IMG/VR virus record: IMGVR_UViG_3300045988_058019
Span: 39,546-103,545 of that record
Source: a virus
Length of the DNA stretch: 64,000 nucleotides
Strand: one strand, 5' to 3'
Shown here: positions 9,644-62,026 of the stretch, one piece after another
How the letters are laid out: the number at the start of each line of letters is the position of its first letter
How positions within the stretch are numbered: position 1 is the first letter of the stretch
The notes under the pieces: model-generated
The model's input: the letters and a program-made list of their open reading frames with translations, nothing else
The model's database searches: none
Told to the model about the DNA's origin: nothing
Program-made: the position numbers and the translations under genes

Positions 9644-9757
9644 AGATAGTAGCTGATAATAAAAATCAAATAAGCCCTAACAGATTAAAAGGGGAGTAAA
9701 ATCTGAGAGGGCTCGAAATTCCGTTTGAGATTATAATTATATAACGATAAGGTTTAT

Positions 9758-10780
9758 TTAAGGTTTCTATTTTGAAAATCTTCTTGCATAAACTAATAGC
9801 TCTTTATAGCGTAATATTTTCTTTAGTAAGTTAATACCATTACAATGCTTAAGCCAACCTATGTGACTACACATTTCTTGTTTGTAATCTTCTACTGTAA
9901 TATGCTTCTTTCTACCTAATCTAGCAGCTTTCCTACACATGCTACGCTTAATATTCTTCCTTACTAAAGTATAGTTATGTCTTATTACATAACCTACAAA
10001 TGATATTCCTCTATCTTCTACTTTAAATACCTGATAGTTATCTTTAAAAGATAATTTTAAAGTAGCAATATACTACTTCATTTCTTCAAACAATTCTCGT
10101 AAATACTCTTTATCCTTATGTAGTATTACTATATCATCTGCATATCTGAAGTAATATTTAACCTATTTATCTTCTTTAAGCCAGTGGTCAAAGTAAGTAA
10201 GATACAGATTAGCAAAGAACTAAGATAAGTAATTACCAATAGGTACACCTTCTGCTGAATCTATTATCTCATCTAATAGCTATAATAACTTCTAATCCTT
10301 TATCTTCTTTCTTATTATGCTCTTTAATACTTCATGGTCTATACTAGGATAGAACTTTCTGATATCTAACTTAAGACAATAAGTAGTATTATCTACATCT
10401 TTTAAAGCTTCTTTAACATTATGTAATGCTTCGTGAATACCTCTGTGTTTAATGCAACTATAAGTATCTTTAATAAAGATAGATACCCATATAGGTTCCA
10501 TTATATTCATTACAGCATGATGTACTATTCTATCTGGATAATAAGGTAATCTAAATATTAATCTTTCTTTAGGTTCTCTAATTATAAATGTATTATATTC
10601 AGAAGTTTTATACGTACCGTTAATTAAATTCTGCTATAGTTTTTTAAGTAATTCTTCTTTATTCTAGTCAAACTCTTTGATATCTTTTCTACTAGATTTA
10701 TTTCTTCTAGCTTTCTTATCTGCTAAATATAAATTGTCTAAGCTAACAATCTTATCGAATAAATTATTATATCTCTTCAT
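9758..10780 (-). CDS. Diversity-generating retroelement reverse transcriptase (8 in-frame TAG)
   Basis: Hand translation shows RLPYYPDRIVHHAV, DIRKFYPSIDH, GVPIGNYLS[TAG]FFANLYL (DGR-type IGxxxSQ motif), YFRYADDIVIL (YADD at 10133-10144) and GISFVGY. It is in frame with ORF-track 10292-10510 and ends at TAA 9758. Confidence 0.9.
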
Positions 10781-42382: not shown

Positions 42383-42460
42383 TGGTTGGGGCGGCAGGGC
42401 TCGAACCCGCACATCACAGAGGTTTAGAATCTCCGGTACTACCAATTATACCACGCCCCA
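42383..42460 (-). tRNA. Suppressor tRNA, anticodon CUA (reads UAG), probable Gln identity
   Basis: The reverse complement folds as TGGGGCG-TG-GTAT/AATTGGTA/GTAC-C-GGAGA/TTCTAAA/CCTCT-...-GCGGG/TTCGAGC/CCTGC-CGCCCCA-A-CCA. It has a perfect 7-bp acceptor stem, U33-CUA-A37 (anticodon at 42425-42427), a canonical T-loop and an encoded CCA. U1-A72 resembles bacterial tRNA-Gln. The variable region looks slightly long (about 7 nt). Confidence 0.85.
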
Positions 42461-48927: not shown

Positions 48928-49549
48928 TGTTTAATATTTTAGATTTATACTTACCGAAGAATTCTAATTCACCATTTAATCTAGCCTTAATTGCATCTTC
49001 TAAAGAAGAAAAACTGCCTAAATATATTTTTTCTTTATTACATTGTATTTCAGCATACCATTTATTTCGATCTTCTCGAAAACGTACTCCCAGTATTCCT
49101 GATGTATTGTTTTTAGGTAATTTTACTCTATTTTTTAAATTATCGGCATTATTGCATATTCTCAAATTTCTTTTTCTATTGTCTAATTTATCTCCATTTA
49201 TGTGATCTATAAGTAAATTGGTTTCGCCAAGAAGGATTCTGTGCAAATATTTCTGTTTAGAGTTTTTCACATATCCATTTTTATCTCTACACCATTTATC
49301 ATTGATTACTTTTGAGATATCTTCTTTATCTATTAAAGTTTCTGCAATTATATCACCGTCTTTATTGTAAAGATATATTATAGCATGATTTGAGAATTCT
49401 TCTATTTCGTTAGGATCGTATTTAGTCCTTAATTTTATTTTACCATATCTAATATATTGTAGGTAATGTTTTCCACATAGTATTCCAATGTTTGTATTAA
49501 CCGTTTTATTACTATTTCCACAAATACAACATATTTTTGTTTGTTTCAT
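48914..49549 (-). CDS. HNH homing endonuclease with AP2-like DNA-binding domain
   Basis: LIDHINGDKLDNRKRNLRICNNADNLKN (HNH) plus SGILGVRF..KWYAEI (AP2-like). An N-terminal CxxC..CxxH motif is also present. Confidence 0.8.
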   Translation of the reverse strand: MKQTKICCICGNSNKTVNTNIGILCGKHYLQYIRYGKIKLRTKYDPNEIEEFSNHAIIYLYNKDGDIIAETLIDKEDISKVINDKWCRDKNGYVKNSKQKYLHRILLGETNLLIDHINGDKLDNRKRNLRICNNADNLKNRVKLPKNNTSGILGVRFREDRNKWYAEIQCNKEKIYLGSFSSLEDAIKARLNGELEFFGKYKSKILNNEIN

Positions 49550-49769
49550 AATTAGTTATAATTTTTATTAATTATTGTTAATAACGCAATTTCTATGGAA
49601 GAGTTTACAAAAGTGTAGATAATTTAACATAAATTAAAAAATATTTTATAAAAAAATTTTTGAGATTAAAAAATATAGAATACTCCTACGTGTGCGTGAA
49701 GTACTACTCCAATTCATCCCCGGCTGTTATTAATCGCGGGAATACCCCCGCCAATAAAATCAAAGCATT

Positions 49770-49868
49770 ATGAGTTTATCAGATTGTATTTTTATTCCCA
49801 CAGATGAAGATGAGGAATATGTTGATGCATTAGCTGATGCATTGGAGTATTATGGAGGCTATGAGTAA
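49770..49868 (+). CDS. Possible 32-aa acidic micro-protein
   Basis: ATG..TAA ORF MSLSDCIFIPTDEDEEYVDALADALEYYGGYE. Confidence 0.25.
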   Translation: MSLSDCIFIPTDEDEEYVDALADALEYYGGYE

Positions 49869-49931
49869 TCATAGCTCTCCTACTCAATTCATTCACAACT
49901 GTAATACCATGCACATTAAATATATCAAGAT

Positions 49932-50075
49932 ATGAAGTACAGAATTGATGCTTACAAAAAAGGTGGTGCTGTTAAGCAAGGCACAAAGTTATTAGACAAC
50001 ATTGATGAGGCTATTAAGCTTGCATATGCTGTTGCTAATCATTACAAGTGTTATACAAGAATAGCCAGGGTTTAA
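49932..50075 (+). CDS. Possible 47-aa protein
   Basis: ATG..TAA ORF. A hairpin TAGCCAGG/CCTGGCTA overlaps the stop. Confidence 0.3.
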   Translation: MKYRIDAYKKGGAVKQGTKLLDNIDEAIKLAYAVANHYKCYTRIARV

Positions 50076-50156
50076 CCTGGCTATCTCTTAGTAAACAGTT
50101 ACAATTCATACTCATCTTAATAGAATTGCATTATTAACCATTTAAATATTTAACTT

Positions 50157-50387
50157 ATGTTAACTAAAGTTAAAGAGGTGAGTAAAAGACTCATCACAGG
50201 TGGCTTACTTTGTATAGCCATCGGAGTTGTTCAGGGATTTGCTGTACAGATGTTAGGCTTATCCTCAGTATTCCCTAACCATATTCAGCTATTTGGTATG
50301 CTACTAATGGTAGGCATCACTAGCATATTAATAGGTGCTATTATGCTATTGTTTATATGGCTAATAAACATGGTTAACAAACTCTAA
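50157..50387 (+). CDS. Small membrane protein (2 TM)
   Basis: Intact ORF with two hydrophobic segments. Confidence 0.55.
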   Translation: MLTKVKEVSKRLITGGLLCIAIGVVQGFAVQMLGLSSVFPNHIQLFGMLLMVGITSILIGAIMLLFIWLINMVNKL

Positions 50388-50406
50388 GCCACTCTAAATG
50401 GTTATA

Positions 50407-50437
50407 GCGGGGAGTCGTGCACTCCCTGCTTTTTCTT
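50407..50437 (+). terminator. Rho-independent terminator
   Basis: GCGGGGAGT-cgtgc-ACTCCCTGC followed by TTTTTCTT. Confidence 0.7.
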
Positions 50438-50764
50438 CACATCCAATTCACACACAGCCAATTATACTGGGTGTACTATAGTACCGTAGTACGTGTTATT
50501 TAGTACTCAGTATCGGATATTCAGTATCTGGTATTGAGTACTTACACCGGCTGCGCACGAACCCCATTCAGCTGCGTCTGCCAAGAATCGGAGGAAAACA
50601 GAAAAGTTCTTCCCGCAATATCATGTGAGCGTTATATAATGATTACGTTTAGATGTGGTAGTGTATAAAAACCACTCCAGTTTGAGCATACTGTAAAAAG
50701 CTCATCATTACTTCACCAAGTAATATATAGCCTTTATAGATTATTCACCAAAAAACATATTATC

Positions 50765-51481
50765 ATGGCAAAGTTTCAGTTATTAAACCCAGTATTAAGA
50801 GTAGTAGGTCAAAAGTATGATGAAAAAGGCATACCTGTTGGAGAAATCAACAAAAATGTTCAAAATGCAGGTAACAAATACTTGTATTCCCAATTAATCA
50901 ATCTTGACTGTCCTTGGGAAGGAACACAAACCTACACAAGTTTTCAAAAGCCAGTAGTAGCCATATTTGAGCCACTACTAAGCATGCAACATGGAGGCAT
51001 TGGTCAAACAGACCAAGCCATACCTGAGATGTTCCAAACTATTGAAGGTTGCTACGTGTCTTGGAAATCACCACAACCATTTTACAAGAAGCACTTGTCT
51101 GCACATCCAGCAAATCCAGCTAAAGGCACACCAGCTATTATGGCGGGAGACATTGTAAAACAAGGAGGAGTTCCAGTAATATACACAGAATTAGTTGTAT
51201 TCTGTCAGTATTACTATGACAGTCGTGGAGAAAAGCAATGGATGAGAGGAAGCACTCCTGAAGAAGTCGGAAGAGCAGCATTCAGTAATTATTGTATTCC
51301 AGCTAACGACACTCGCGCATTAGCAGCAGAACAACCTCAACAACAGGAAACAGTTGGAGGGCAAACTATCAACACAGTTAATCCTAACCAACAACCTCAA
51401 CAGCAAGCTCAGCCTCAACAAGCTCAACCGCAGTTTGTACAAGGCCCAGCTCAACAGCAAGGTGCCGCATTTGGCGCGTAA
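50765..51481 (+). CDS. Hypothetical protein with Gln/Pro-rich C-terminal tail (SSB-like architecture?)
   Basis: Intact 238-aa ORF. A globular N-terminal part is followed by the low-complexity QPQQQ..QQAQPQQAQPQ tail. The function is a guess. Confidence 0.55.
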   Translation: MAKFQLLNPVLRVVGQKYDEKGIPVGEINKNVQNAGNKYLYSQLINLDCPWEGTQTYTSFQKPVVAIFEPLLSMQHGGIGQTDQAIPEMFQTIEGCYVSWKSPQPFYKKHLSAHPANPAKGTPAIMAGDIVKQGGVPVIYTELVVFCQYYYDSRGEKQWMRGSTPEEVGRAAFSNYCIPANDTRALAAEQPQQQETVGGQTINTVNPNQQPQQQAQPQQAQPQFVQGPAQQQGAAFGA

Positions 51482-51969
51482 CCACTAATTAGAACAAGAG
51501 AATAGCATAGCAAAAATAATGCGCTTGTTCTATATTTTTTATTAAAATAGACTCACAAAGAAAATGTATTTGTGAGTAAATAATGGTGAAACCACATTGC
51601 TTTAAATAGTAATGTGAGGACCATTCCGCCCTATTTGCAATTATGAACTGCATAGTGACAGAGACCTAAGAAAGGGAAGCAAATGAGCGTTGATATCGTG
51701 GCGAAAGCTGCGTTCCACCATTGTACGTAGGGGTGTGTGGGTAATCGGCTAAAGGAACGTTCTATTATAGTATGTTGCGAGTACTATAGTAAATAGAGTA
51801 AGCATGGCGACTCGGAAAGACGAGCTTTACTTGCTGGTAGGGTAGTTTAAACCAGTAGTGCATATCTTTTCGGCGGTTTACTAGTAACGCACTTAAAAGT
51901 TTAAGGATAAACTGTACAGGAAACCAATTCCGATTTATAAGTTTGGTGACAACTTGAAAGAGAGTGACA

Positions 51970-51992
51970 GCCTGGAAAGACAGGCATTTTTT
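51970..51992 (+). terminator. Terminator-like hairpin inside a long intergenic region
   Basis: GCCTG-GAAAGA-CAGGC followed by ATTTTTT. Confidence 0.55.
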
Positions 51993-52066
51993 AGTCATCT
52001 ATAGTATTAAAAAGGCTATAGTATAGTAGTAATACCTACTCAAAGAGCACGGCGGTGGGCTCATAG

Positions 52067-52096
52067 TCAGGTGATAAGCCTATTCCTGACATTTTT
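52067..52096 (+). terminator. Terminator-like hairpin
   Basis: GTCAGG-13 nt-CCTGAC followed by ATTTTTATT. Confidence 0.45.
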
Positions 52097-52118
52097 ATTA
52101 ATTCAAAAACAAAAAGTA

Positions 52119-52379
52119 ATGAAATATTACGCATTTATGCCATTTTGGCATTGGTCTGAAGTTATGGATGAAAGACCAACTGATGGAGATTACATTCTTG
52201 GTAATATTGTAAGAACTACTGATGCATTACTAGCTCTTACTTTGTATTCAGAAACTCCATGTCCTGCATCTCAACTAATAGAGGCTAATAGCGAAGAAGA
52301 ACTTGAAGCTAAAATAGAAGAGATGAAACAAAACTATAAGAATCCAGAATGGGTTTCTAAACTTGAAGAATTTCTATAA
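52119..52379 (+). CDS. Hypothetical protein, 86 aa
   Basis: The ORF-track ORF 52071-52379 starts at a non-ATG codon inside a hairpin. The in-frame ATG at 52119 (MKYYAFMPFWHW..) is preferred. Confidence 0.5.
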   Translation: MKYYAFMPFWHWSEVMDERPTDGDYILGNIVRTTDALLALTLYSETPCPASQLIEANSEEELEAKIEEMKQNYKNPEWVSKLEEFL

Positions 52380-52390
52380 ATTCTTATTTA

Positions 52391-52475
52391 GCCCGAATGG
52401 TGAAATAGGTATACACGAAAGACTTAAAATCTTTTGACCATTATGGTCGTGCGAGTTCAAGTCTCGCTTCGGGTA
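52391..52475 (+). tRNA. tRNA-Leu (anticodon UAA), type II
   Basis: GCCCGAA acceptor, anticodon arm AAAGA/CTTAAAA/TCTTT, long variable arm GACCA-tta-TGGTC, T arm GCGAG/TTCAAGT/CTCGC, 3' strand TTCGGGT (G1.U72). Confidence 0.85.
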
Positions 52476-52850
52476 CAAAAGGATAGCTATCGTTTACTTC
52501 TCACAGACAGTTCTCAATAAAAAACTCAATAACTTCGGAGTAGCGTAAGCTACGGAGTTGTGTAACAATCCCAAGACATTGAGGGCACCAGTTTCTTATA
52601 ATAGTATAGTTGGCAGACGTAAGGGCGTACTCAGCTGCCAGATGAAGCAGTGAATTCTGTGGACTGATAGAGAACGTGTGATATTCAGGCTATGCGTTGC
52701 GCAGTTATAAGTTTTAGGTGTAAAATGCAATTTAATCATTAACTAAATAATCATATGGATAGAGACACAGAATTAGGTATGTTATCAGTAATAATCACAA
52801 TGATAGTATTATATCTATCTATATGGTTATTTAACTAAAAATGAACAGAA

Positions 52851-53075
52851 ATGAATACTCTAATTAGTAAATTATTAGGAACTGCAGTAGGAGTAAAAAT
52901 AGGGAATAATACTATTATAGGCTTATTAGTAGGTGTAGCATGGGATGAAAATTTACAAATATCAGAGTTATCATTATCTCCTTCAGAGAATAATGTAAAT
53001 ACTTATCTCATTGACACATATATTATGCCTTATTTTGACGAACACCTAAATATAGTAGTATATACCGCATTATAA
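52851..53075 (+). CDS. Hypothetical protein, 74 aa
   Basis: Intact ORF-track ORF. Confidence 0.45.
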   Translation: MNTLISKLLGTAVGVKIGNNTIIGLLVGVAWDENLQISELSLSPSENNVNTYLIDTYIMPYFDEHLNIVVYTAL

Positions 53076-53727
53076 TATTAATACAGATTTATTTCGCAAA
53101 GTAATTATTCTATGAAATGCAAATTATCCTCATATGTTGTGAAACATAATTTAACCACGTTAAAGTATAATAATATAAGTTAGGTATGTCCTTATAAAGA
53201 CTTAGGTAGCGCTAAGGACTATATTATTATACTTCTCTTCTTAAACCACCGATGATACGTGACAAGTCGTATATGGAATGAGTGTGAGTCAAGAAGTAAA
53301 CTATTCCGCCTTTATATGCACATTAAAGGTTAAAGATTGAATAGTAATCCACGTGGTAGATGCAGTTGTAGGTTCCAACTGGTGCACATCTTTTAGAGAC
53401 AGCAACCAAGCTCGAAGTAAGCAGAGCGAAGATTAGCTATACCTCGATAGGCTTAATGAGGTGCTTAACAGTCTGACACTAACTGAACAATAAGTGTCTT
53501 TTAAGTTCACCCTCAAGAAGGGAAAATGTTGAACTCTACAGATATGTAGACAGCTCCATTAACTCTAGCTGTAATAAAGAGTTATTAATAGAGTAAGAGA
53601 ATAGAAACGTGTATATCTACGTAGTTCTTAGCATAGCTTATAGTCGCACATCGTAACTGATGACTATATTAATGCGCTTACTCTATTATTTTTATTGCAT
53701 TAACTAACAAATAAATAATATCAAATT

Positions 53728-54174
53728 ATGGAGAAAATAACTTGTATTCAGCAGTATGTAATAGATAATCTTATTGAAGATGAGATATTATCTACAAACA
53801 GTCTATTAGATGCAGTTTCTGAAGTATGTTCAGAAGAACAATTTAATAACATACTATCTATTCTTATTGAAACACCTATTCCTTGTACAGACATACCTAA
53901 ATTGGAGCATAAAGAAGACTCAGGAAATAAAACAAACTTAGTAAGAATGAGTATGTTTATACCTGAAGAAACTAACACTTTAGCTAAACTAGGCATAATA
54001 AAAATACTAAAAAAACAATTCAACTTTAGTCTTAACCAAACTAAAGAATATGTAGATAGTTGCATAGGAAAGTATAGTATACTACCCAATGCTATTCTAC
54101 AAACAGAAGTAGATGAAGTTACTAAAAAATTAGAACCTTACAATGTAATTGTATCTACAGCAGTGTTTTATTAA
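53728..54174 (+). CDS. Hypothetical protein, 148 aa
   Basis: Intact ORF-track ORF. Confidence 0.5.
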   Translation: MEKITCIQQYVIDNLIEDEILSTNSLLDAVSEVCSEEQFNNILSILIETPIPCTDIPKLEHKEDSGNKTNLVRMSMFIPEETNTLAKLGIIKILKKQFNFSLNQTKEYVDSCIGKYSILPNAILQTEVDEVTKKLEPYNVIVSTAVFY

Positions 54175-54206
54175 TAAGTTAATGCAGTAAATATTACTGC
54201 ATCTAT

Positions 54207-54321
54207 ACTGTGAGAATCAGTGTCAACTTTGTGGGGCTTATATTCAGTTATTCTTTATGTAAAATAGGAGTCATGACCTAATAATATCATAATATAAACT
54301 GATATTAGTGCAGAGAAATCA
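54207..54321 (+). ncRNA. Structured RNA module, copy 1 (UGAGAAU hairpin ... UGUGGGGCUUAUAU - variable hairpin - UAUUAGUGCAGAG)
   Basis: ACTG-TGAGAAT-CAGT hairpin, conserved TGTGGGGCTTATAT, variable stem TCAGTT/AACTGA, conserved TATTAGTGCAGAGAAATCA. Confidence 0.5.
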
Positions 54322-54469
54322 AAGACAATATACATTTTAGTGCGATTGATGTATACGAGTAAAGGTCATGACAAGGTTCATGATTTAAGGGTGTCTTAAA
54401 CGACAGGTTGAGAGCAACAACGTAAAAGCACAATTGCTAAGTCAGAGGAACCCATCTCTGGCGCTCTTT

Positions 54470-54557
54470 AAGGTGAGAATCCTTAACAATCCTGTGGGGC
54501 TTATATCTCGTGTTTATAGTAGTGGTGTCACGAGTATTAGTGCAGACGTTAAAATCA
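54470..54557 (+). ncRNA. Structured RNA module, copy 2
   Basis: AAGG-TGAGAAT-CCTT (a compensatory stem relative to copies 1 and 3), TGTGGGGCTTATAT, stem CTCGTG/CACGAG, TATTAGTGCAGACGTTAAAATCA. Confidence 0.5.
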
Positions 54558-54891
54558 GGAACAACTATATTAGACGGCAATATTACCTTCTTCCGGTCGC
54601 AAATGTCATATAGTTTAATATAGCCAAGTTTGTTTCGTCCTTAGATTTACAGTATTTGCCATTTGTTTATTTAATCATTGTTCGTTCTTAATTATACAGA
54701 TTGATTAATTAAGCATAACAGTAAGCGTACTGTTGTCAGTATATTTATATGTGAATATAGATATACTGATTGCACTCAAAAGCTGGCCTTCACGTGGCGA
54801 GTGTGTTAAGTAATAGGTCTAAAAAATCTTCCAGTTTTACCTATGAAAACTAACAGCTACCTTTTTATTAACTTTAATAACTATCAAAAAT

Positions 54892-55077
54892 ATGTATAAA
54901 AAACTATCAAATTTAAATGTTGGAGATATATTCCAATATGGAGACACTATATATGAAATAGTAGAAAAAGGAGTATGGCATGCAAAATGCAAGTATATTA
55001 ATGAAACTCCTAAATCGGAATATTCACCTAAATATTTATTTATAAATTTTAGTCTTTATACTCGAGTTAAAGTTTAA
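54892..55077 (+). CDS. Small hypothetical protein, 61 aa
   Basis: Intact ORF-track ORF. Confidence 0.45.
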   Translation: MYKKLSNLNVGDIFQYGDTIYEIVEKGVWHAKCKYINETPKSEYSPKYLFINFSLYTRVKV

Positions 55078-55088
55078 TAATTTTAAAT

Positions 55089-55171
55089 GCCCAGATGGCG
55101 AAATAGGTAGACGCTAAGGTCTTAAACACCTTTGACCATTGGTCGTGCGGGTTCGACTCCCGCTCTGGGTA
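55089..55171 (+). tRNA. tRNA-Leu (anticodon UAA), second diverged copy
   Basis: GCCCAGA acceptor, anticodon arm AAGGT/CTTAAAC/ACCTT, variable arm GACCA-t-TGGTC, T arm GCGGG/TTCGACT/CCCGC, 3' strand TCTGGGT (G1.U72). Confidence 0.85.
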
Positions 55172-55200
55172 CAATTAGTAATTAACATTAAAATCTATTT

Positions 55201-55506
55201 ATGATAAAAGTAATTAAATATTATGAACTAAATCGAATTAGTAGAATATTAGTAATAGCAATAATAACATATATTATTGGCATTCTAATTAAAAGAGAAT
55301 ATGAAGAGTCCAAAACTGTATATAATTTTGTAGATTTACAAATGAAGTACAAGAATTATATATTAGTTAATAAAGAGAGAAGTATTACTAATGATGAAGA
55401 ATATAAGTTCACATTACGTAATCCTATTACAAATCAAAATAGTACTGTATACGTAAAATACTATCTATATCATCATGTATATTTCGTTGGAGATACTATA
55501 AAATAA
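55201..55506 (+). CDS. Hypothetical membrane-anchored protein
   Basis: Intact ORF with an N-terminal hydrophobic segment. Confidence 0.5.
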   Translation: MIKVIKYYELNRISRILVIAIITYIIGILIKREYEESKTVYNFVDLQMKYKNYILVNKERSITNDEEYKFTLRNPITNQNSTVYVKYYLYHHVYFVGDTIK

Positions 55507-55525
55507 CATTTTAATCAATAAAAGT

Positions 55526-55894
55526 ATGAAAAGAGAAGAAATTAAATCTTACAAAGATGCTTGCAAAGTAATAGGTAGGAAACCTAGAACTTATAAAGAT
55601 AAGCATTTGAATCTGTATGAACAGCTTAGTACAATTATAGCTGCTCTAAATTTCATTAGTAATGGTAATAAACCTTGGACACCTAAGTTCGATTATTATT
55701 ACATCTATTCTTGGTTGTATAGAGAAGATGAATATAATAAAACTGCGGGTTTGTTCCATTTGAATTCTTACCGTGGGTTGGGCTCTTCCTCTGCTGGTGT
55801 CGGGGCTTCTCTGAAGATAAAAGAAAGAGAAGATGGAAATTACATAATGGAAAACTTTGAAGAACTACTCCAAGATTGGTTTTGGGGAGATTAA
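55526..55894 (+). CDS. Hypothetical protein, 122 aa
   Basis: Intact ORF-track ORF. Confidence 0.5.
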   Translation: MKREEIKSYKDACKVIGRKPRTYKDKHLNLYEQLSTIIAALNFISNGNKPWTPKFDYYYIYSWLYREDEYNKTAGLFHLNSYRGLGSSSAGVGASLKIKEREDGNYIMENFEELLQDWFWGD

Positions 55895-55919
55895 TTACTA
55901 ATTTTAAAACATTATCAAA

Positions 55920-56384
55920 ATGGAAAATGATTTAATGGCGAGACCTGAACCGCCAAGAAGAACTGTTTGGGTAGTAGTAGCAATCCTTGCCTTAATAGGC
56001 ATGATTGGAGCAATATTTTACGCAGAGCGTAAAAACATTGCTAATTTCTTAAATGGTGTAAACCAAGAAGAAGTACAAGAAGATGCGCATATTACTATTG
56101 AAGAGCCTGTAGCAACAATACAGGATATTCTCGATATGCGTGAGCAAATGAGAGAAGATAGAAGGATTGATAGTGTATTTTTAGCTATGCCAAAGGTAGT
56201 ATTAATTGATATTTTGATGCAGCATGGTACATCATTGTCTATAAAAGACATGATTTACATATATGAATCAAACACATCAACGTATAACACAGTACTATCT
56301 GGAGCAAGAGCTCAAAAATATCTTGATGACTCTATACAAACTCATGTTATATCAACGGTTGTAAATGACTCTATTCAAAATTAA
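55920..56384 (+). CDS. Hypothetical membrane-anchored protein
   Basis: Intact ORF with TM segment VWVVVAILALIGMIGAIFY. Confidence 0.5.
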   Translation: MENDLMARPEPPRRTVWVVVAILALIGMIGAIFYAERKNIANFLNGVNQEEVQEDAHITIEEPVATIQDILDMREQMREDRRIDSVFLAMPKVVLIDILMQHGTSLSIKDMIYIYESNTSTYNTVLSGARAQKYLDDSIQTHVISTVVNDSIQN

Positions 56385-56474
56385 AACCAAACCTCCTGTT
56401 TTAAATGAATATTAGAGTCTAGTATACTCAGTCTGTGAAGATAGAGTATACTTTCATTAAAAAAACTAAATAAT

Positions 56475-56918
56475 ATGAGAAAGTACACAAACACATATAT
56501 AATAAAAGATAACAATGGAGTATTAGTTATTAAAGGAAACAATAAATACATTGAAGTATTAATTGATGTTGAAGATATTGATAAATTAAAGCCTTATTCT
56601 TGGAGAATAAACGATAAAGGGTATATAATATCTGATTATAAAAGAAATAAAGTAAGATTACACAATATAATATTAGATAGAGACACATCTAATACAAAAA
56701 TCGTGTGTGACCATATTAATCGAAATAAGTTAGATAATAGAAAAGCAAATCTAAGAATAATAAGTCAAAGAGAAAACAACTTAAATAGAGAGAATATAAT
56801 CAACGCTAAATATTATACTTATAGAAAAGACAGAAATAAGTATTATGTATATGGAGTTGGTTATTTTAATACTGAAGAAGAAGCAATAAAAGCTCGTAAT
56901 AACTGTGAGAATCAGTAA
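56475..56918 (+). CDS. HNH homing endonuclease
   Basis: VCDHINRNKLDNRKANLRIISQRENN is the HNH motif. The 3' end overlaps RNA module copy 3. Confidence 0.8.
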   Translation: MRKYTNTYIIKDNNGVLVIKGNNKYIEVLIDVEDIDKLKPYSWRINDKGYIISDYKRNKVRLHNIILDRDTSNTKIVCDHINRNKLDNRKANLRIISQRENNLNRENIINAKYYTYRKDRNKYYVYGVGYFNTEEEAIKARNNCENQ

Positions 56919-56994
56919 CAAACATGTGGGGCTCATATCTTATCAAAAGAATGCTAGCGCTTTTAGATAGGTATTAGTGCAGACGTTAAAATCA
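56902..56994 (+). ncRNA. Structured RNA module, copy 3
   Basis: ACTG-TGAGAAT-CAGT, TGTGGGGCTCATAT, variable hairpin CTTATC../..GATAGG, TATTAGTGCAGACGTTAAAATCA. Confidence 0.5.
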
Positions 56995-57187
56995 TGTACT
57001 CCAATAAGATTTAGTTTGACAGCTATTTCTGCTTATGAGTTAAAACTATAGTGAGAGTCATAGTAAGTAACGATTGTAGTCGTTTATCTTTGTCTTATAA
57101 CAAATGCTATAAACTAAGAGTTGGCACTAACTTAATTAAATCCTGAGTGTCCAGGCGTCATTATTAACAATTTAAATTTTTAGAAAC

Positions 57188-57421
57188 ATGAAAAAGATTG
57201 GAAAATTTTTATTTGTAGAGCAATGCTTTACAGATACTGAAGAAACAAAACCTTGTATTATTCACATTGATGCAATTGACTGTATAACATGCACCAATAT
57301 CAGTGGACTCGGAGAAGTTGTAGTAATAGAAACAGATAATACAAAAATTCTCTGCAACGATCCGGATAATTTCTTTACTGAGTTTGAAAACCTAATTTCA
57401 TCAGAGGAAGAAGAATGGTAG
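57188..57421 (+). CDS. Hypothetical acidic protein (ends at TAG)
   Basis: Intact ORF. The TAG stop is followed 3 codons later by an in-frame TAA. Confidence 0.5.
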   Translation: MKKIGKFLFVEQCFTDTEETKPCIIHIDAIDCITCTNISGLGEVVVIETDNTKILCNDPDNFFTEFENLISSEEEEW

Positions 57422-57678
57422 TCAATAAAGTAAAAGAAGGTCGTAAGTTAACTGAAATAAAGTTCAGTAACGACCATTATCTTGCTAACCTATTAGCTAC
57501 TACTAAAGTACTTGGTATATCGTTAGAACGAGCTAAAAAGCTATGTAGAACAGTACCAGGTAAAAGAGTAGAAGTTAATCCACCTATTGAAATTATCAGT
57601 AAACTAAATACTGATAAACTATTTGAAGAATTAGAGGAATATGAAATAGAAGTATCTATCAGTATTCCTAGTAAATAA
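57415..57678 (+). CDS. Hypothetical protein, 87 aa
   Basis: Intact ORF whose start overlaps the previous stop. Confidence 0.5.
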   Translation: MVVNKVKEGRKLTEIKFSNDHYLANLLATTKVLGISLERAKKLCRTVPGKRVEVNPPIEIISKLNTDKLFEELEEYEIEVSISIPSK

Positions 57679-57695
57679 CTTATCAAAAGTAAAGT

Positions 57696-58163
57696 ATGAA
57701 AGCAATTATTATTTCGTTTGAAGGAGTTATAAAGGATGAAACTATATTAGCATCACTTTTAGCATCCTGCATAGGAAAAAATGTAAATACTGAAGATGTA
57801 GATGTTCATATCTTGTCAGATATAGATGTAACAAATGCTTTAATAGCTAAATGTTTAACTCCACCTGCTATAGCAGTAGATAGACCAGCTAATCCGCAAA
57901 TTGCAGTAGTAAAAGACTTCTGTAAGAAGATTATTGCATCTATTGGTTCACCTGCTCTCAAGACACGAGAGCTATTGAATTCAGAACTATGTAAGTTCTT
58001 AGTACAACAGAATCGCGAGGTTATTAGTGTTCCAGTAAGTATTATTGCTAAAGTAAATACTACTTCTGCATATTACGAACATCGTAAGGTACTAAAGGAA
58101 TACGGTTTATCTGCATTACCTGAGTTATTACGAGATATTAATCCTCTATTTAAATTTTATTAG
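57696..58163 (+). CDS. Hypothetical protein, 155 aa (ends at TAG)
   Basis: Intact ORF. TAG is followed by 5 codons and then TAA. Confidence 0.5.
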   Translation: MKAIIISFEGVIKDETILASLLASCIGKNVNTEDVDVHILSDIDVTNALIAKCLTPPAIAVDRPANPQIAVVKDFCKKIIASIGSPALKTRELLNSELCKFLVQQNREVISVPVSIIAKVNTTSAYYEHRKVLKEYGLSALPELLRDINPLFKFY

Positions 58164-58164
58164 T

Positions 58165-58263
58165 ATGGCAAAGAAGAATAATGAAGAACCTCCAAAGGAA
58201 TTCAAAAAGAAGCCAAAACATAAAAAGATGGAGCCTTATAATCGTAAGAAAGCATGGAAGTAA
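58165..58263 (+). CDS. Possible 32-aa Lys-rich peptide
   Basis: ATG..TAA ORF MAKKNNEEPPKEFKKKPKHKKMEPYNRKKAWK. Confidence 0.3.
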   Translation: MAKKNNEEPPKEFKKKPKHKKMEPYNRKKAWK

Positions 58264-58400
58264 ACAATGATTGTCCTACACTTGATAATCATATCAACTG
58301 TAGTGAATGTACTCACGAGTGTAAACTCAGAATGCAACCAAAGAATAGTAAAGAAGTAGAGGTTCCGCCAGAGCCTCTACTCAATACTATATATTACTAA
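58254..58400 (+). CDS. Possible 48-aa Cys-containing peptide
   Basis: ATG..TAA ORF MEVNNDCPTLDNHINCSECTHECK.. Confidence 0.3.
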   Translation: MEVNNDCPTLDNHINCSECTHECKLRMQPKNSKEVEVPPEPLLNTIYY

Positions 58401-58642
58401 TTTAAATTGTTAGTAAAATGGTGGATTCAGTCAACCTAAAGAACTGTTTAAGACTAGAACCCTAATGGAAATTGTCAATCAAGAGTACAATGGACTATAC
58501 AACGGTCAACCACATTATATGTAGGTCAGGAGAAGGCAGGGAGTCTCCTGTTGAATAAGAAGTACAAATAGACAGGAACAGTTCTTTTTAATTATTACTT
58601 AAATTTACTAAAAGATATGAGTAAAACAAAAAACAAATTAAA

Positions 58643-58870
58643 ATGTCATATTATATGACCAATATAGTCATCACTCCTACTCTATACGAGGAGAAAAGAT
58701 TAGAAGCTATATCATACTTTAGTAGATGTAGCAAAGAAGTAGCACTAAAAATTCATAAAAAGAATAAGTATAAAGATATCAAATTAAGGCTAAATGTTAT
58801 AGCAGTAGCTATAATAGAAGCTAAAAAGAGATATTTTGACGACTGTTCTTTTATTAAGATTATATTATAG
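58643..58870 (+). CDS. Hypothetical protein, 75 aa (ends at TAG)
   Basis: Intact ORF. TAG is followed by one codon and then TAA. Confidence 0.45.
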   Translation: MSYYMTNIVITPTLYEEKRLEAISYFSRCSKEVALKIHKKNKYKDIKLRLNVIAVAIIEAKKRYFDDCSFIKIIL

Positions 58871-58914
58871 TGTTAAATAAATTTTATTGTTAAATCAATT
58901 AAACTGTATTCAAA

Positions 58915-59385
58915 ATGGCAGAAAAAGAAAAATTGAACATCCTTACAGAGGATGTAAATGGTGACAACATCCAAGACGTAATTGCAAACTCAAGTAAAGT
59001 AACTGAAGAAATCGCAGAAGAAGCTGCGAAGAAGATTGCCGAACGCCGTAAGGAGAAACTTACGAAGGATCTTGTCAATGTTGTTCAGAAGAGCGAATAT
59101 ACTGTTATGTCGGCAGTATTGCAAGTTCGCCGTTCTAACAGAACAAACCAACGTATCAAAACCTACCTGAAGGAATTGTCCGCACTGAAGGAAGAGATTG
59201 TGAGCGGAAAGAAACCCGTGTCCGCATGGAATGAAGAAGCGCTCGCTCTCAAGAAACAGTACGATAAAGACCTTATTGAGATTGGGAAAGAAATCGACAA
59301 GTCGCTTAACGAATTGAACGAAATCTTCCCGGACTCCTGGCAGTGGAGATACAATGAGTTAGTTCCCGGTGTAAATCGTCGCTAA
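58915..59385 (+). CDS. Coiled-coil hypothetical protein, compositionally GC-richer
   Basis: Intact ORF whose codons are visibly richer in G/C than those of neighbouring early genes. Confidence 0.55.
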   Translation: MAEKEKLNILTEDVNGDNIQDVIANSSKVTEEIAEEAAKKIAERRKEKLTKDLVNVVQKSEYTVMSAVLQVRRSNRTNQRIKTYLKELSALKEEIVSGKKPVSAWNEEALALKKQYDKDLIEIGKEIDKSLNELNEIFPDSWQWRYNELVPGVNRR

Positions 59386-59898
59386 CTCAAAACAAACAAA
59401 ATAAAAGAGGTTCCAAGCTTAGAATCTTTGAATCAATAGCTTAGTATGTGAGTCGGAATCAGTTCTTTTGAACTAACTAGGGCCTGAGGCATACAAGGAC
59501 CTGAATTAACAGGTCTCATACAGAATTTTTAAATCAGTTATGGGGAACTACCGTGAACTACTGATCATAAGTCTGAGATCGCGACAATAAGATTGTCCTC
59601 TAGAGATAGAGAAACGCCTTAGTCGTGACATCAAGTTAGACTGAATAATATGAATCTTTGAATCGCTTAAAGTATCTATACTTTAACTATTATTCGTGTA
59701 TTATCAAGATCAGTATAAGAGAACTAACCATTCTCAAGACCATAGGGTATATGACTTTGGTCGGTCATATACTCACAATAGAGTAGGTATAATACCGAAC
59801 TGTAAAAAGAATTGACTGTTAGGTCTATTTATGCCTTCAGGTGACCGCGGGGCAGTACCGCGCACATCCACTAAAAAAATATAATAAGGGTGTGAAAT

Positions 59899-60092
59899 AG
59901 TATTGAACCGTTGAAACAGAATAGAATAGGTCAATAAGCAGATAACTGGCAATACAAGTTATGTAACGGACTATACTGGTATCGCAGCGTGATAACAGAG
60001 TCCAACGGCTAAGCTAATGTCGTAGAAAGCTGGGGCATATCAGGCTAGATCAGACGTAAGGGCTGTGAAGGGTTCGATTCCCTTCAATGCTA
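59899..60092 (+). ncRNA. tRNA-like-terminated structured RNA candidate
   Basis: A canonical T arm AAGGG/TTCGATT/CCCTT (60068-60084) is followed by CAATGCT-A. This pairs 7/7 (one U.G) with AGTATTG at 59899-59905. The interior has helices CCGTTG/CAACGG and GACT/AGTC. There is no canonical D or anticodon arm. Confidence 0.35.
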
Positions 60093-60125
60093 CAATATTA
60101 AGTTTAATCAATAAATTAATTTGAA

Positions 60126-60404
60126 ATGGGATTAATGAATTTTATTAGACAGAATCTTCCAGAATCATGGGAGAAAGCTGCAACAGAGATGAGAATGAAG
60201 ACTGAATTAATAACTCGTCTTCATAATGTAGTACCTCGTGCTTATAAGAATAAGTATCACTACAAAGAAGGAATATCTTATATTAGAAGAGTATTCAATA
60301 CTAAATGTGACATAATACATTTAGTAGATGCTACTGATATAGATATTACTAAATGGAATGAATTAAGTAGTAAAATAAAAGAATACGAATATCAATGCGT
60401 GTAA
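60126..60404 (+). CDS. Hypothetical protein, 92 aa
   Basis: Intact ORF-track ORF. Confidence 0.5.
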   Translation: MGLMNFIRQNLPESWEKAATEMRMKTELITRLHNVVPRAYKNKYHYKEGISYIRRVFNTKCDIIHLVDATDIDITKWNELSSKIKEYEYQCV

Positions 60405-60580
60405 GATATTTTGCTTGGTTTGACTCTAAACATGAAAGAACAGAGTTCATTAACTTGCTCAGATCAGCTAAGTCTGATATTGATGCAGTTAATAAAGTGA
60501 TGCAAAAGTATCCAGAATTAACTTTATCAGAAGTATCTGGAATAGTAAATAACTTTAAAAAAGAAATTAATCAACCATGA
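60395..60580 (+). CDS. Hypothetical protein, 61 aa
   Basis: Intact ORF with overlapping ends. Confidence 0.45.
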   Translation: MRVRYFAWFDSKHERTEFINLLRSAKSDIDAVNKVMQKYPELTLSEVSGIVNNFKKEINQP

Positions 60581-61038
60581 GACTCAATCATCCTGGTATC
60601 TACAGAATTGTAGGTGAAAGCTTTGAACTTCTAGCTAATATAACTGGAGAAGTTCCTTGTATGAGAATTACTTCTGCACTATTAGTTAATGACTTAGTAC
60701 AGAAAGGGGAATTCACAGTACTACCTGAAGAATCTATTGAAATTCAGAGCGTATTAGCGAATCCCGACAAATTTGTTTTTCTAGAGTATGAATACTCAGA
60801 AATATGTTCATTACCATCTTATCGTCAATCGATACATGGTACAAAAATGCCTAATATAACTGATGAACAGTTAAAGACATTTACTAATAAATACCTTGAA
60901 GATATTGGAATATATGGACGAGGTGTAGCTGCAACTAAAGCTTATATATTAGAAACTACAGGCTGGTCATTGGCACAAATTAATGTAGTACTAATGAAAA
61001 TAGCTAAAAGAGTAAAGCAGCAATATGTTAATTTATAG
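60577..61038 (+). CDS. Hypothetical protein, 153 aa (ends at TAG)
   Basis: Intact ORF. TAG is followed by 11 codons and then TAA. Confidence 0.5.
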   Translation: MRLNHPGIYRIVGESFELLANITGEVPCMRITSALLVNDLVQKGEFTVLPEESIEIQSVLANPDKFVFLEYEYSEICSLPSYRQSIHGTKMPNITDEQLKTFTNKYLEDIGIYGRGVAATKAYILETTGWSLAQINVVLMKIAKRVKQQYVNL

Positions 61039-61417: not shown

Positions 61418-61465
61418 GTCTATAGAGTCTTGGTTGACTCTATAGGCACACTAAAGCCCGTAATT

Positions 61466-62026
61466 ATGACAGATGAAGAAAGACAACAGCTTTTAGATCT
61501 GATCAAGCAGGCTAAAGAAGGTAAACAATATGCCTTCACACAGCTTTATAATCGTTATCACAGAATTATATACAATACTATATATAATATTGTACACAAT
61601 AAGGATGTAACAGATGATTTAGTATCTGTAACGTTTACTAAAGCTTTCTTTAAGATAGCTAGTTATGTTAATCATATTTCATTTGAGATGTGGTTAAAAA
61701 CTATCGCTATAAATAGTAGTATTGATTATATACGACGTACTAAAAAAGAGAAGTATGATTATGAGTTAGATAATGATAATAACTGTCTACAGGTAAGCAG
61801 TTCGGCCGACAGCTCACCAGAGGATTTGTACATATATCATGAGACAGATAGTAAGTTATCAGATGCATTAAGCAGACTCCGCTATAAGTATAGGTATATA
61901 CTTGAACTACGTACAGTTCAGAATCTCTCTTACAAAGAGATTGCTGAACATCTTGAGCTCTCTGAGTCTCAAGTAAAATCTCGCCTTAACAAAGCGAGAG
62001 AGAAATTAAAACAATTGTTAAACTAA
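61466..62026 (+). CDS. ECF-type sigma-70 family RNA polymerase sigma factor
   Basis: Region-2-like ..FTQLYNRYHRIIYNTIYNIVHNKDVTDDLVSVTFTKAF..FEMWLKTIAINSSIDYIRR and region-4 HTH ..ILELRTVQNLSYKEIAEHLELSESQVKSRLNKAREKLK. The ATG at 61466 is preferred over the ORF-track TTG start. Confidence 0.7.
   Translation: MTDEERQQLLDLIKQAKEGKQYAFTQLYNRYHRIIYNTIYNIVHNKDVTDDLVSVTFTKAFFKIASYVNHISFEMWLKTIAINSSIDYIRRTKKEKYDYELDNDNNCLQVSSSADSSPEDLYIYHETDSKLSDALSRLRYKYRYILELRTVQNLSYKEIAEHLELSESQVKSRLNKAREKLKQLLN

Follow-up and report, generated by a model that had tools for sequence, protein, structure and literature searches.

Polycistronic RNA can be punctuated by elements that stand between its functional units, as is the case with the theta ribozymes (similar to those of hepatitis delta virus, HDV) beside tRNAs in gut phages and with the tRNA punctuation of mitochondria. 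Two other groups of structured RNAs, the hatchet ribozymes and the RAGATH RNAs, were reportedly discovered in anonymous gut metagenomes; the RAGATH RNAs are said to go back to Weinberg et al. 2015 and 2017 and the hatchet also to Weinberg et al. 2015. For RAGATH-6, -7, -9, -20 and -22 we know of no function. In this work, positions 51482-60125 were analyzed in a window of 64,000 nucleotides from the virus record IMGVR_UViG_3300045988_058019 (positions 39,546 to 103,545 of that record; all coordinates refer to the window). An earlier note, made from the letters and the open reading frames (ORFs) alone, had described this region as a series of unusually long intergenic gaps between tiny early genes and tRNAs. 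In all likelihood the gaps represent an island of RNA genes and structured leaders within a rightward early/middle operon of a crAss-like phage of the Suoliviridae. Three hatchets, four RAGATH-type RNAs and a phage transfer-messenger RNA (tmRNA) thereby obtain a place in the defined genomic grammar of a near-complete crAss-like genome.

Li et al. (2015) listed 210 hatchets, all of them metagenomic and none in a sequenced organism (PMC4604424), and according to a 2026 preprint (Rfam 15.1) the class is by now restricted for the most part to genomes of Crassvirales. P1 begins with nucleotide U1, and the entire hatchet is situated 3' of the cut; the HDV-type ribozymes are likewise located wholly downstream of their own cleavage site (PMC6561176). 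Cleavage takes place at the 5' base of P1 and generates 2',3'-cyclic phosphate and 5'-hydroxyl ends (PMC6561176; PMC6154101), and the conserved core comprises the CAA linker, U28-G31, G63-G66 and A73-A75 (PMC6561176). An accessory hairpin, P0, precedes the cleavage site in approximately 90% of hatchets and is dispensable; it is the only accessory structure named in the hatchet paper, which names none downstream, and the constructs studied carried a C at position -1 (PMC4604424). GOLLD and ROOL belong to the large phage-associated RNAs to which the earlier note had alluded because the gaps abut tRNA genes; they are likewise structured RNAs, encoded by phages in the vicinity of tRNA genes (PMC5737381). 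Neither of them gave an Rfam match here, and the window contains many units of 80-200 nt instead of one RNA of 500-800 nt.

The GenBank phage matches to 51400-60200 (megablast) were crAss-like phages from human faeces. The best of them, cr53_1 (NC_055889; Suoliviridae, Loutivirinae, Blohavirus), showed 90.9% identity over 62% of the query, and judged by such similarity the source phage is a crAss-like member of the Suoliviridae. The hatchets of the window are located in DNA of a human-gut phage, the kind of DNA from which the original metagenomic examples stem. Near 49550-50156, a divergent junction opens a block of rightward small ORFs, within which the gaps are found and which extends into a gene for a sigma factor of the extracytoplasmic function (ECF) type (61430-62026, +).

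All RNA elements share their strand with the small ORFs. Searching Rfam at curated thresholds yielded ten matches in the window, seven of which lie in or beside the gaps, all seven on the + strand, and about 1.1 kb of the sequence is covered by curated families above their gathering scores. The earlier statement that no known RNA family could be assigned was therefore mistaken, as RAGATH-6, -7 and -9, the three hatchets and the permuted tmRNA all exceed the Rfam gathering scores. The accompanying suggestion of undescribed phage noncoding RNAs or ribozymes was correct with regard to the kind of element, ribozymes of the self-cleaving type included, and incorrect with regard to novelty, since most belong to catalogued families. 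Overall, the finding consists mostly of known families in a new member genome, together with a few candidate new motifs. The RAGATH-type RNAs and the hatchets with their P0 hairpins are the following:

53087-53237, + strand: RAGATH-6 RNA (Rfam RF02686; 173.5 bits, gathering score 170; full model length)
53300-53499, + strand: RAGATH-7 RNA (Rfam RF03159; 190.3 bits, gathering score 111.8)
54182-54202, + strand: P0 hairpin of hatchet 1, 8 bp (read from the sequence)
54201-54324, + strand: hatchet ribozyme 1 (Rfam RF02678; 89.6 bits, threshold 51)
54443-54460, + strand: P0 hairpin of hatchet 2 (read from the sequence)
54464-54560, + strand: hatchet ribozyme 2 (Rfam RF02678; 97.6 bits, threshold 51; conserved core intact)
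56896-56997, + strand: hatchet ribozyme 3 (Rfam RF02678; 88.7 bits, threshold 51; core intact)
58427-58588, + strand: RAGATH-9 RNA (Rfam RF03146; 136.4 bits, gathering score 75.2)
59498-59580, + strand: RAGATH-20/22-like element (RAGATH-20, 28.8 bits, threshold 101.4; RAGATH-22, 18.8 bits, threshold 120.3)

RAGATH-6, -7 and -9 are represented by full-length model matches and are clustered with self-cleaving ribozymes, as their name implies. RAGATH-18, an exception in the wider RAGATH series in that it is a TnpB guide RNA (PMC11061315), is absent from the window. The element at 59498-59580 has a hairpin with a GAAUUAAC loop and the motif ACUGAUCA...AGAUC in common with RAGATH-20 and RAGATH-22, and true RAGATH-20 RNAs occupy the same site, upstream of the tmRNA, in cr52_1 and cr60_1. 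As its scores are far below both thresholds and only the hairpin and the 3' motif are shared, it is treated here as a relative of RAGATH-20/22 and not as a member; nhmmer searches with true RAGATH-20 sequences, and likewise with RAGATH-14 and RAGATH-7-assoc, found nothing in the window.

For comparison, 56 relatives were retrieved from IMG/VR by means of a conserved ORF and supplemented by several GenBank genomes of other Suoliviridae genera. An Rfam scan of 16 relatives, drawn from several Suoliviridae genera, revealed a shuffled assortment of families in the same early region, composed of RAGATH-14, -6, -7, -7-assoc, -9 and -20, two or three hatchets, a permuted tmRNA and tRNA-Leu. Single blocks of the island were present in 2 to 58 of 58 loci, and this very uneven block-wise conservation characterizes the island as a mosaic. 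Together with the confinement to Crassvirales stated in the preprint, the families found in the relatives indicate that these phages evidently rank among the main sources of RAGATH and hatchet families. Where annotation pipelines leave these 4 kb blank, an Rfam scan could fill most of them.

The three hatchets all span model positions 1-133 and possess P1-P4, the CAA linker and the UGGGG and GCAG...AAA core of the family. In the Rfam alignment every conserved core nucleotide is present in hatchets 2 and 3; hatchet 1 has kept CAA, UGGGG, GCAG and AAA and is devoid of four nucleotides, CGUU, of the 3' core. Hatchets without CGUU were found in 14 distinct copies in the fetched loci of the relatives, with the core GUGCAGAG-AAAUCA instead of GUGCAGACGUUAAAAUCA, which argues for a maintained subclass and not for a one-off decay. 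With U1 placed in the published register (PMC6561176), cuts are predicted at 54204/54205, 54467/54468 and 56899/56900, and position -1 is occupied by U, U and A in hatchets 1, 2 and 3, respectively. In the loci fetched up to then, 43 distinct hatchets caught by the sequence pattern had an upstream ORF, and in 36 of them the stop codon of this ORF was located 10-60 nt ahead of the cleavage site.

Hatchet 3 is adjoined by an ORF of 147 aa (56475-56918, +) encoding an HNH homing endonuclease (PHROG_99, E = 4e-16; Pfam HNH_3, 23.9 bits), which was detected in the window and in two relatives only. Because the ORF fills the space in question, hatchet 3 has only a weak P0 candidate of 3 bp. The last six codons and the stop codon of the ORF overlap P1 of the ribozyme, and its end, stop codon included, is situated 19 nt past the predicted cut at 56899/56900, so that self-cleavage would strip the message of its stop codon. 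The ORF ahead of the hatchet in most relatives is instead one of 154 aa, 'shock protein B', at a distance of about 75 nt. On the side of the window, the differences from the described family are consequently the CGUU deletion in copy 1 as well as A(-1) and the overlap of P1 with the HNH ORF in copy 3; the adjoining RNAs, termed U4b and U5 in the following, are outside the published motif.

54561-54891, + strand: U4b, structured leader after hatchet 2 (covariation)
54737-54858, + strand: conserved domain of U4b (long hairpin with GUGA cap; multi-helix part with AGCUG/CAGCU as closing helix)
56998-57187, + strand: U5, structured leader after hatchet 3 (conservation and covariation)
56998-57040, + strand: two-helix 5' domain of U5 (covariation)
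57119-57132, + strand: U5 hairpin with GGYAYU loop (compensatory changes, by eye)
57142-57155, + strand: U5 pre-CGUC hairpin (19 different stem sequences)
57156-57161, + strand: CGUCAU after the pre-CGUC hairpin, 32 nt ahead of the ATG at 57188
59745-59774, + strand: 12-bp hairpin just upstream of the tmRNA (compensatory change in 11 of 12 pairs)

Scanning IMG/VR for the hatchet 3' core GTGCRGACGTWAAAATCA returned at least 120 stretches, including contigs of 130-250 kb. The sequences downstream of 119 distinct hatchets comprised two large classes, with 74 U5-like and 41 U4b-like representatives among the matches listed; neither U5 nor U4b has an Rfam match at E ≤ 1. U5 is more than 97% identical in 57 loci, compared with about 90% for the flanking coding sequences. 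Its first 43 nt form the 5' domain, in which a 4-bp outer helix encloses a 10-bp hairpin. In an alignment of 37 distinct sequences, which was registered by hand with N-padding, 85.5% of the cells of this domain were paired, as compared with 32-46% when the partners were slid, and 95 double-change cells were counted against 14-29 with slid partners; none of 500 shuffles matched the observed value. RNAalifold predicted no structure from the raw MAFFT alignment, in which the outer helix is mis-registered. A 'P5 hairpin' in a review (PMC6154101) was considered as an earlier description of this domain and dismissed, as the primary paper has P0, on the 5' side (PMC4604424).

Toward its 3' end, U5 carries a stem with 19 different sequences of 4-10 bp, the end of which is always 0-2 nt from a near-invariant CGUCRUCA. 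In most copies this hairpin-CGTC motif is located 31-35 nt ahead of a start codon. Since at least four unrelated ORF families follow as first ORF, U5 behaves as a general leader, and a leader specific for one gene family was rejected. Three further proposals were discarded: a pseudoknot between the U5 loop UUUGACAG and CGUCRUCA and a pairing of CGUC with the GACG core of the hatchet, neither of which received covariation support among the variants, as well as AAATCC...CGTC as a promoter for the ECF sigma factor, the spacing of which is variable and too short. At about 57095-57110 and in the homologs, U5 contains a conserved UUAUUAACAAAUG resembling the sequence ahead of genuine start codons. 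Behind it, a mini-ORF with 1-6 codons (up to eight in locus L107; AUG CUA UAA in the window) runs into the GGYAYU hairpin. U5-like leaders with hatchets were also observed on viral contigs of 130-250 kb (L071, L074, L113, L118, L139 and others); as these are far larger than crAss-like genomes, the combination of hatchet and U5 is not confined to the Suoliviridae.

The conserved domain of U4b was compared in 31 distinct sequences, in which 99.4% of the cells were paired and nine pairs showed double changes (56 cells), against 0-1 pairs with slid partners. Its closing helix AGCUG/CAGCU is replaced by AGGCA/UGCCU and AGGUA/UACCU in relatives. An alternative outer helix, CUGUU/AACAG, is weakened in variants that keep AGGYA/URCCU and was abandoned, as was a GCACUC/GAGUGU helix devoid of covariation. 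A further unassigned stretch, U6 (59386-59810), contains the RAGATH-20/22-like element. It comprised six double-change pairs (45 cells) in 59386-59600, against 0-2 pairs when slid, and 20 double-change pairs (91 cells) in 59600-59810, against 0-6 pairs when slid (35 distinct sequences). U5, U4b and U6 thus keep their base pairing through compensatory changes. Within U6, GAATCTTTGAATC occurs twice, at 59422-59434 upstream of the RAGATH-20-like element and at 59652-59664 upstream of the tmRNA; these repeats may be promoters or protein-binding sites.

The only + strand terminator-like site that a terminator scanner reported within 51482-60125 is the hairpin at 51970 with its T-run; from about 52000 to 60400 the scanner found no + strand intrinsic terminator. 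Of the two internal terminator-like hairpins described before, the first was hence retrieved by the scanner; the second (about 52069-52093) is visible in the sequence and has a longer loop than the scanner admits. The region is therefore probably read as long polycistronic RNAs. According to the model that we propose for their processing, each hatchet would cut at the 5' border of its own sequence, as a rule 10-60 nt past an ORF stop and just after P0. The upstream mRNA would keep its stop codon and have P0 as its terminal hairpin, with a 2',3'-cyclic phosphate at the end, and the ribozyme would persist as the folded 5'-hydroxyl end of the next unit, which consists of a leader (U4b or U5) and a small ORF. 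Further cuts by RNase P and RNase Z would be expected at the two tRNA-Leu, the tmRNA and a tRNA-like remnant. The RAGATH RNAs and the tmRNA freed in this way could act in trans, the tmRNA presumably in the rescue of stalled ribosomes. The grammar of the locus can accordingly be put as follows: the ribozyme stands just past the ORF stops, P0 would stay on the upstream product and one of two conserved leaders would always be fused downstream.

As in the known punctuation systems, elements that are self-cleaving or recognized by RNase P stand between functional units on one strand of the window. The presumed likeness to theta-ribozyme punctuation has its limit in the position of the cutting elements, which in the window are hatchets after ORF stops and not ribozymes at tRNA 3' ends. 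No HDV-family Rfam match was obtained at E ≤ 1 in 49500-60600, a search in which no dedicated theta-ribozyme model was used.

It is conceivable, although we regard it as rather doubtful, that U5 and the U4b domain 54737-54858 are undescribed functional RNA classes and that ribozyme, structured leader and small ORF form a regulatory cassette. In such a cassette, cleavage by the hatchet would create the 5'-hydroxyl end of the leader, and the fold of the leader, including the invariant hairpin-CGUCRUCA element, would set the stability or translation of whichever ORF follows. More speculatively, in the variants bearing the HNH ORF the cut within the ORF might leave an mRNA without stop codon, which the tmRNA of the phage itself would deal with. 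If the leaders are functional, they would constitute new RNA classes and a natural case of ribozyme-defined mRNA 5' ends.

The tmRNA and the tRNAs to which the processing model refers are located as follows:

52391-52476, + strand: tRNA-Leu(UAA), copy 1 (ARAGORN; Rfam tRNA, 57.7 bits)
55089-55172, + strand: tRNA-Leu(UAA), copy 2 (ARAGORN and Rfam; kept in most relatives)
59778-60083, + strand: permuted, acceptor-piece-first tmRNA (ARAGORN at 95% of the default threshold)
60016-60093, + strand: tRNA-like remnant after the tmRNA (ARAGORN at 85% of the threshold only, with a 4-base 'anticodon')

The two tRNA-Leu genes recognized before were confirmed as tRNA-Leu(UAA) by ARAGORN and Rfam. At its default threshold ARAGORN called no tmRNA in the window; the Rfam match to RF04321 (59811-59992) reached 56.1 bits with a gathering score of 47. 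The acceptor helix of 7 bp is formed by GGGUGUG (59888-59894) and CACAUCC (59863-59869), with the T-arm at 59846-59862. As the 3' acceptor strand lies ahead of the 5' strand, the order is permuted. The helix contains a G3.U70 wobble (G59890.U59867), and G3.U70 is the identity element for alanine. In cr115_1 the acceptor reads GGGGCAU/AUGCUCC, with compensatory differences from the window and G3.U70 kept. The tag ORF at 59948-59995 encodes GNTSYVTDYTGIAA followed by two stop codons. For relatives, ARAGORN at its default threshold reported the tags GNTSYVMDYTGIAA, with two stops, and GNTSYIMNYSRIAA, with one, so that a frame ending in a hydrophobic residue, two alanines and a stop is conserved among the relatives. 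GenBank records of relatives already contain an annotated tmRNA.

With the described two-piece tmRNAs (RF04321; alpha_tmRNA, RF01849) the window copy shares the acceptor-first order, G3.U70 and a tag that ends in AA plus stop, and with the alphaproteobacterial form in addition the GGCAGUA loop of the T-arm. It differs in being phage-encoded (crAss-like relatives infect Bacteroidales according to the literature), in the 14-residue tag GNTSYVTDYTGIAA, in a 3' end reading ACU instead of an encoded CCA, in a loop of only 17 nt between the acceptor strands and in its position between a RAGATH-20-like RNA and a tRNA-like remnant. This remnant has an acceptor-like helix with G.U at pair 3 and a canonical T-arm (60067-60085), and is devoid of a normal anticodon arm. 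At its site cr60_1 has an annotated tRNA-Leu (Rfam tRNA, 31.5 bits), and two IMG/VR relatives (L004 and L028) have an odd tRNA of 91 nt. The remnant may serve as a signal for processing or be a tRNA in decay. At the tmRNA-equivalent locus of cr4_1 (L061), a group I intron was found at 9720-10009 (Rfam, 75.4 bits) together with an ORF on the opposite strand; it may interrupt the tmRNA or a tRNA there.

Several observations weigh against the view of the gaps as an RNA island. U1b and U2, two unassigned stretches treated below, are without useful covariation, and the folding energies of the gaps are no better than those of shuffled sequence. Several of the covariation counts are based on hand-registered alignments or on structures derived from the same alignment, by which the percentages of paired cells are inflated. 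The threshold margin of RAGATH-6, only 3.5 bits, is marginal. Hatchet 1 is without four core nucleotides and hatchet 3 has A(-1) instead of C; cleavage of both is a prediction from the sequence. The operon and its processing are themselves what we infer: the terminator scanner applies an E. coli-type rule, which terminators of Bacteroidota or phages may escape, and internal promoters in the gap region may exist. Finally, hairpin-CGTC could be a promoter element at the DNA level, by which U5 would be split into a 3' trailer and a promoter.

This last point leads to the rival that has to be taken seriously where covariation is lacking and in the case of hairpin-CGTC. According to it, the unassigned stretches, and possibly some portions of the assigned ones, would function chiefly at the level of DNA, as promoters, operators or recombination seams of mobile cassettes. 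We consider it unlikely for the region, with a real chance of being right. The fixed distance of 31-35 nt at which hairpin-CGTC precedes the ATG in ORFs of four or more unrelated families is reminiscent of promoters or translation initiation; the stem in front of CGTC, however, varies between 4 and 10 bp, which does not agree with a -35 element at fixed spacing. The phage has an ECF-type sigma factor of its own, and GAATCTTTGAATC is repeated ahead of the RAGATH-20-like element and the tmRNA, whereas a scan for sigma-70-type promoters gave 45 sites compared with 54 in shuffles. Recombination seams would suit a mosaic region with partly sharp-bordered blocks and an HNH homing endonuclease, and a DNA function would suit U1b and U2 with their ordinary folding energies. 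Structure-based matches such as the Rfam families are not accounted for in this manner, nor are the six or more helices in U4b, U5 and U6 that show compensatory changes, as pairing that is kept while the sequence changes indicates a folded single strand.

Relics of self-splicing introns or decayed mobile elements, with fossil structures devoid of present function, had also been proposed in the earlier note. Neither at gathering scores nor at E ≤ 1 was a group I or group II intron matched in the window, and nhmmer with the cr4_1 intron found nothing there; what stands of the proposal is the traffic of mobile elements, to which the HNH ORF adjoining hatchet 3 and the group I intron at the tmRNA-equivalent locus of cr4_1 testify, and the degenerate tRNA-like remnant may be added. 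Decay is difficult to reconcile with unassigned blocks that are more conserved than the flanking genes (U5 more than 97% against about 90%), which points to purifying selection, and relics are highly improbable as an explanation. Still slightly less credit is given to short or recoded protein genes that escape a standard ORF scan. TAG appears to be recoded in the late genes of the phage, and tiny ORFs do occur in the gaps, such as the one in U5 with the conserved AACAAAUG and 1-6 codons after it (as many as 8 in L107); yet no gap contains a + strand ORF of 60 aa or more under three genetic codes, substitutions in the gaps keep base pairs and not reading frames, and more than 1 kb is covered by matches to RNA covariance models. 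For the window, relics and hidden genes are both essentially excluded. An island of RNA genes and leaders remains the explanation that we favor.

Candidates for undescribed RNAs are limited to 51826-51985, 52477-52850, 53500-53727, 54325-54463, 54561-54891, 56998-57187 and 59386-59810. Possibly new are the two hatchet-linked leaders, the deletion subclass of the hatchet, the RAGATH-20/22-like variant and the module 51826-51985; any of these motifs may have been depicted earlier outside Rfam. Apart from U4b, U5 and U6, these stretches are composed as follows:

51826-51985, + strand: U1b module, 160 nt, with the 3' hairpin GCCUG-GAAAGA-CAGGC (sharp homology borders)
52477-52850, + strand: U2 (read from the sequence; no Rfam match)
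52541-52554, + strand: GNRA hairpin of U2 (read from the sequence)
about 52609-52640, + strand: U2 hairpin carrying a 13-mer (read from the sequence)
about 52752-52832, + strand: long AT-rich hairpin of U2 (read from the sequence)
53500-53727, + strand: U3, after RAGATH-7, with a long terminal helix and then a U-rich run (sequence and covariation)
54325-54463, + strand: U4a, spacer between hatchets 1 and 2, containing P0 of hatchet 2 (read from the sequence)

IMG/VR contained 24 distinct copies of U1b, some of them on contigs of 150-175 kb, and the module recurs in unrelated contigs. The flanks of the copies are unrelated, and the T-run after the hairpin is present in the window only. Its 3' 75 nt are nearly invariant, with a single compensatory pair, so that covariation cannot be judged, and no Rfam match was obtained at E ≤ 1. 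For U2, no compensatory changes were detected among 5 and among 23 distinct homologs. U3 occupies the site of RAGATH-7-assoc in relatives and is not similar to it by nhmmer or Rfam; nine compensatory pairs were counted, compared with 0-3 when slid, among only five distinct homologs. U4a is present in eight loci only and has one compensatory pair.

The 13-mer CAGACGTAAGGGC, which had been regarded as a shared module, has exactly two copies, both on the + strand (52614-52626 and 60051-60063) and both in the loop region of a small hairpin, the second within the tRNA-like remnant. The copies are exact and cr115_1 keeps the 13-mer at both sites; their flanks are unrelated and their number is only weakly beyond chance. 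In 5 of 100 shuffles at least two matches were obtained within two mismatches, and by our own estimate about 0.4 chance pairs of 13-mers are expected in 4 kb of noncoding DNA. A shared module was therefore not accepted.

The five noncoding stretches on which the earlier note was based (51482-52118, 52476-52850, 53076-53727, 54175-54891 and 59386-60125) are indeed free of + strand ORFs of at least 60 aa, under genetic code 11 as well as with TAG or TGA read through, and two more gaps of the same kind, at 56919-57187 and 58401-58642, had been overlooked. The hairpins quoted are present as well: GTAGC-GTAA-GCTAC at 52541-52554, CTCG-GAAAGA-CGAG at 51811-51824 and GCCTG-GAAAGA-CAGGC at 51970-51985. 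The G+C content of the five stretches, in order, is 0.374, 0.352, 0.331, 0.335 and 0.373, compared with a mean of 0.32 for neighboring coding sequences and 0.333 for the whole window; a slight excess thus exists, and 'visibly richer' was an overstatement. The term 'hairpin-dense' finds no thermodynamic support, as the mean z-score of the minimum free energy (MFE) in 150-nt windows was -0.93 for noncoding and -1.55 for coding sequence; 51800-51990 scored -0.43 and 52477-52700 scored 0.03. MFE z-scores were consequently rejected as an RNA detector, since they do not separate the RNAs from coding sequence.

The sigma factor gene at the end of the small-ORF block codes for Sigma70_r2 and r4_2 domains and is sigma-W-like in the annotations of relatives. 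In 51482-60125 the noncoding fraction in a greedy ORF model amounts to 40-47%, with TAG taken as stop or as sense; in 1-49500 it is 43% under code 11 and drops to 9.6% when TAG counts as a sense codon. The description of the phage as otherwise tightly packed consequently applies once TAG is read as sense and does not apply under code 11. The late and structural genes (1-49500, - strand) appear to read TAG as sense: their ORFs become much longer in this way, up to 3.6 kb. The early + strand block needs no recoding. A tRNA with the anticodon CUA, labeled 'Pyl' by ARAGORN, is located among the late genes at 42383-42460 (-).

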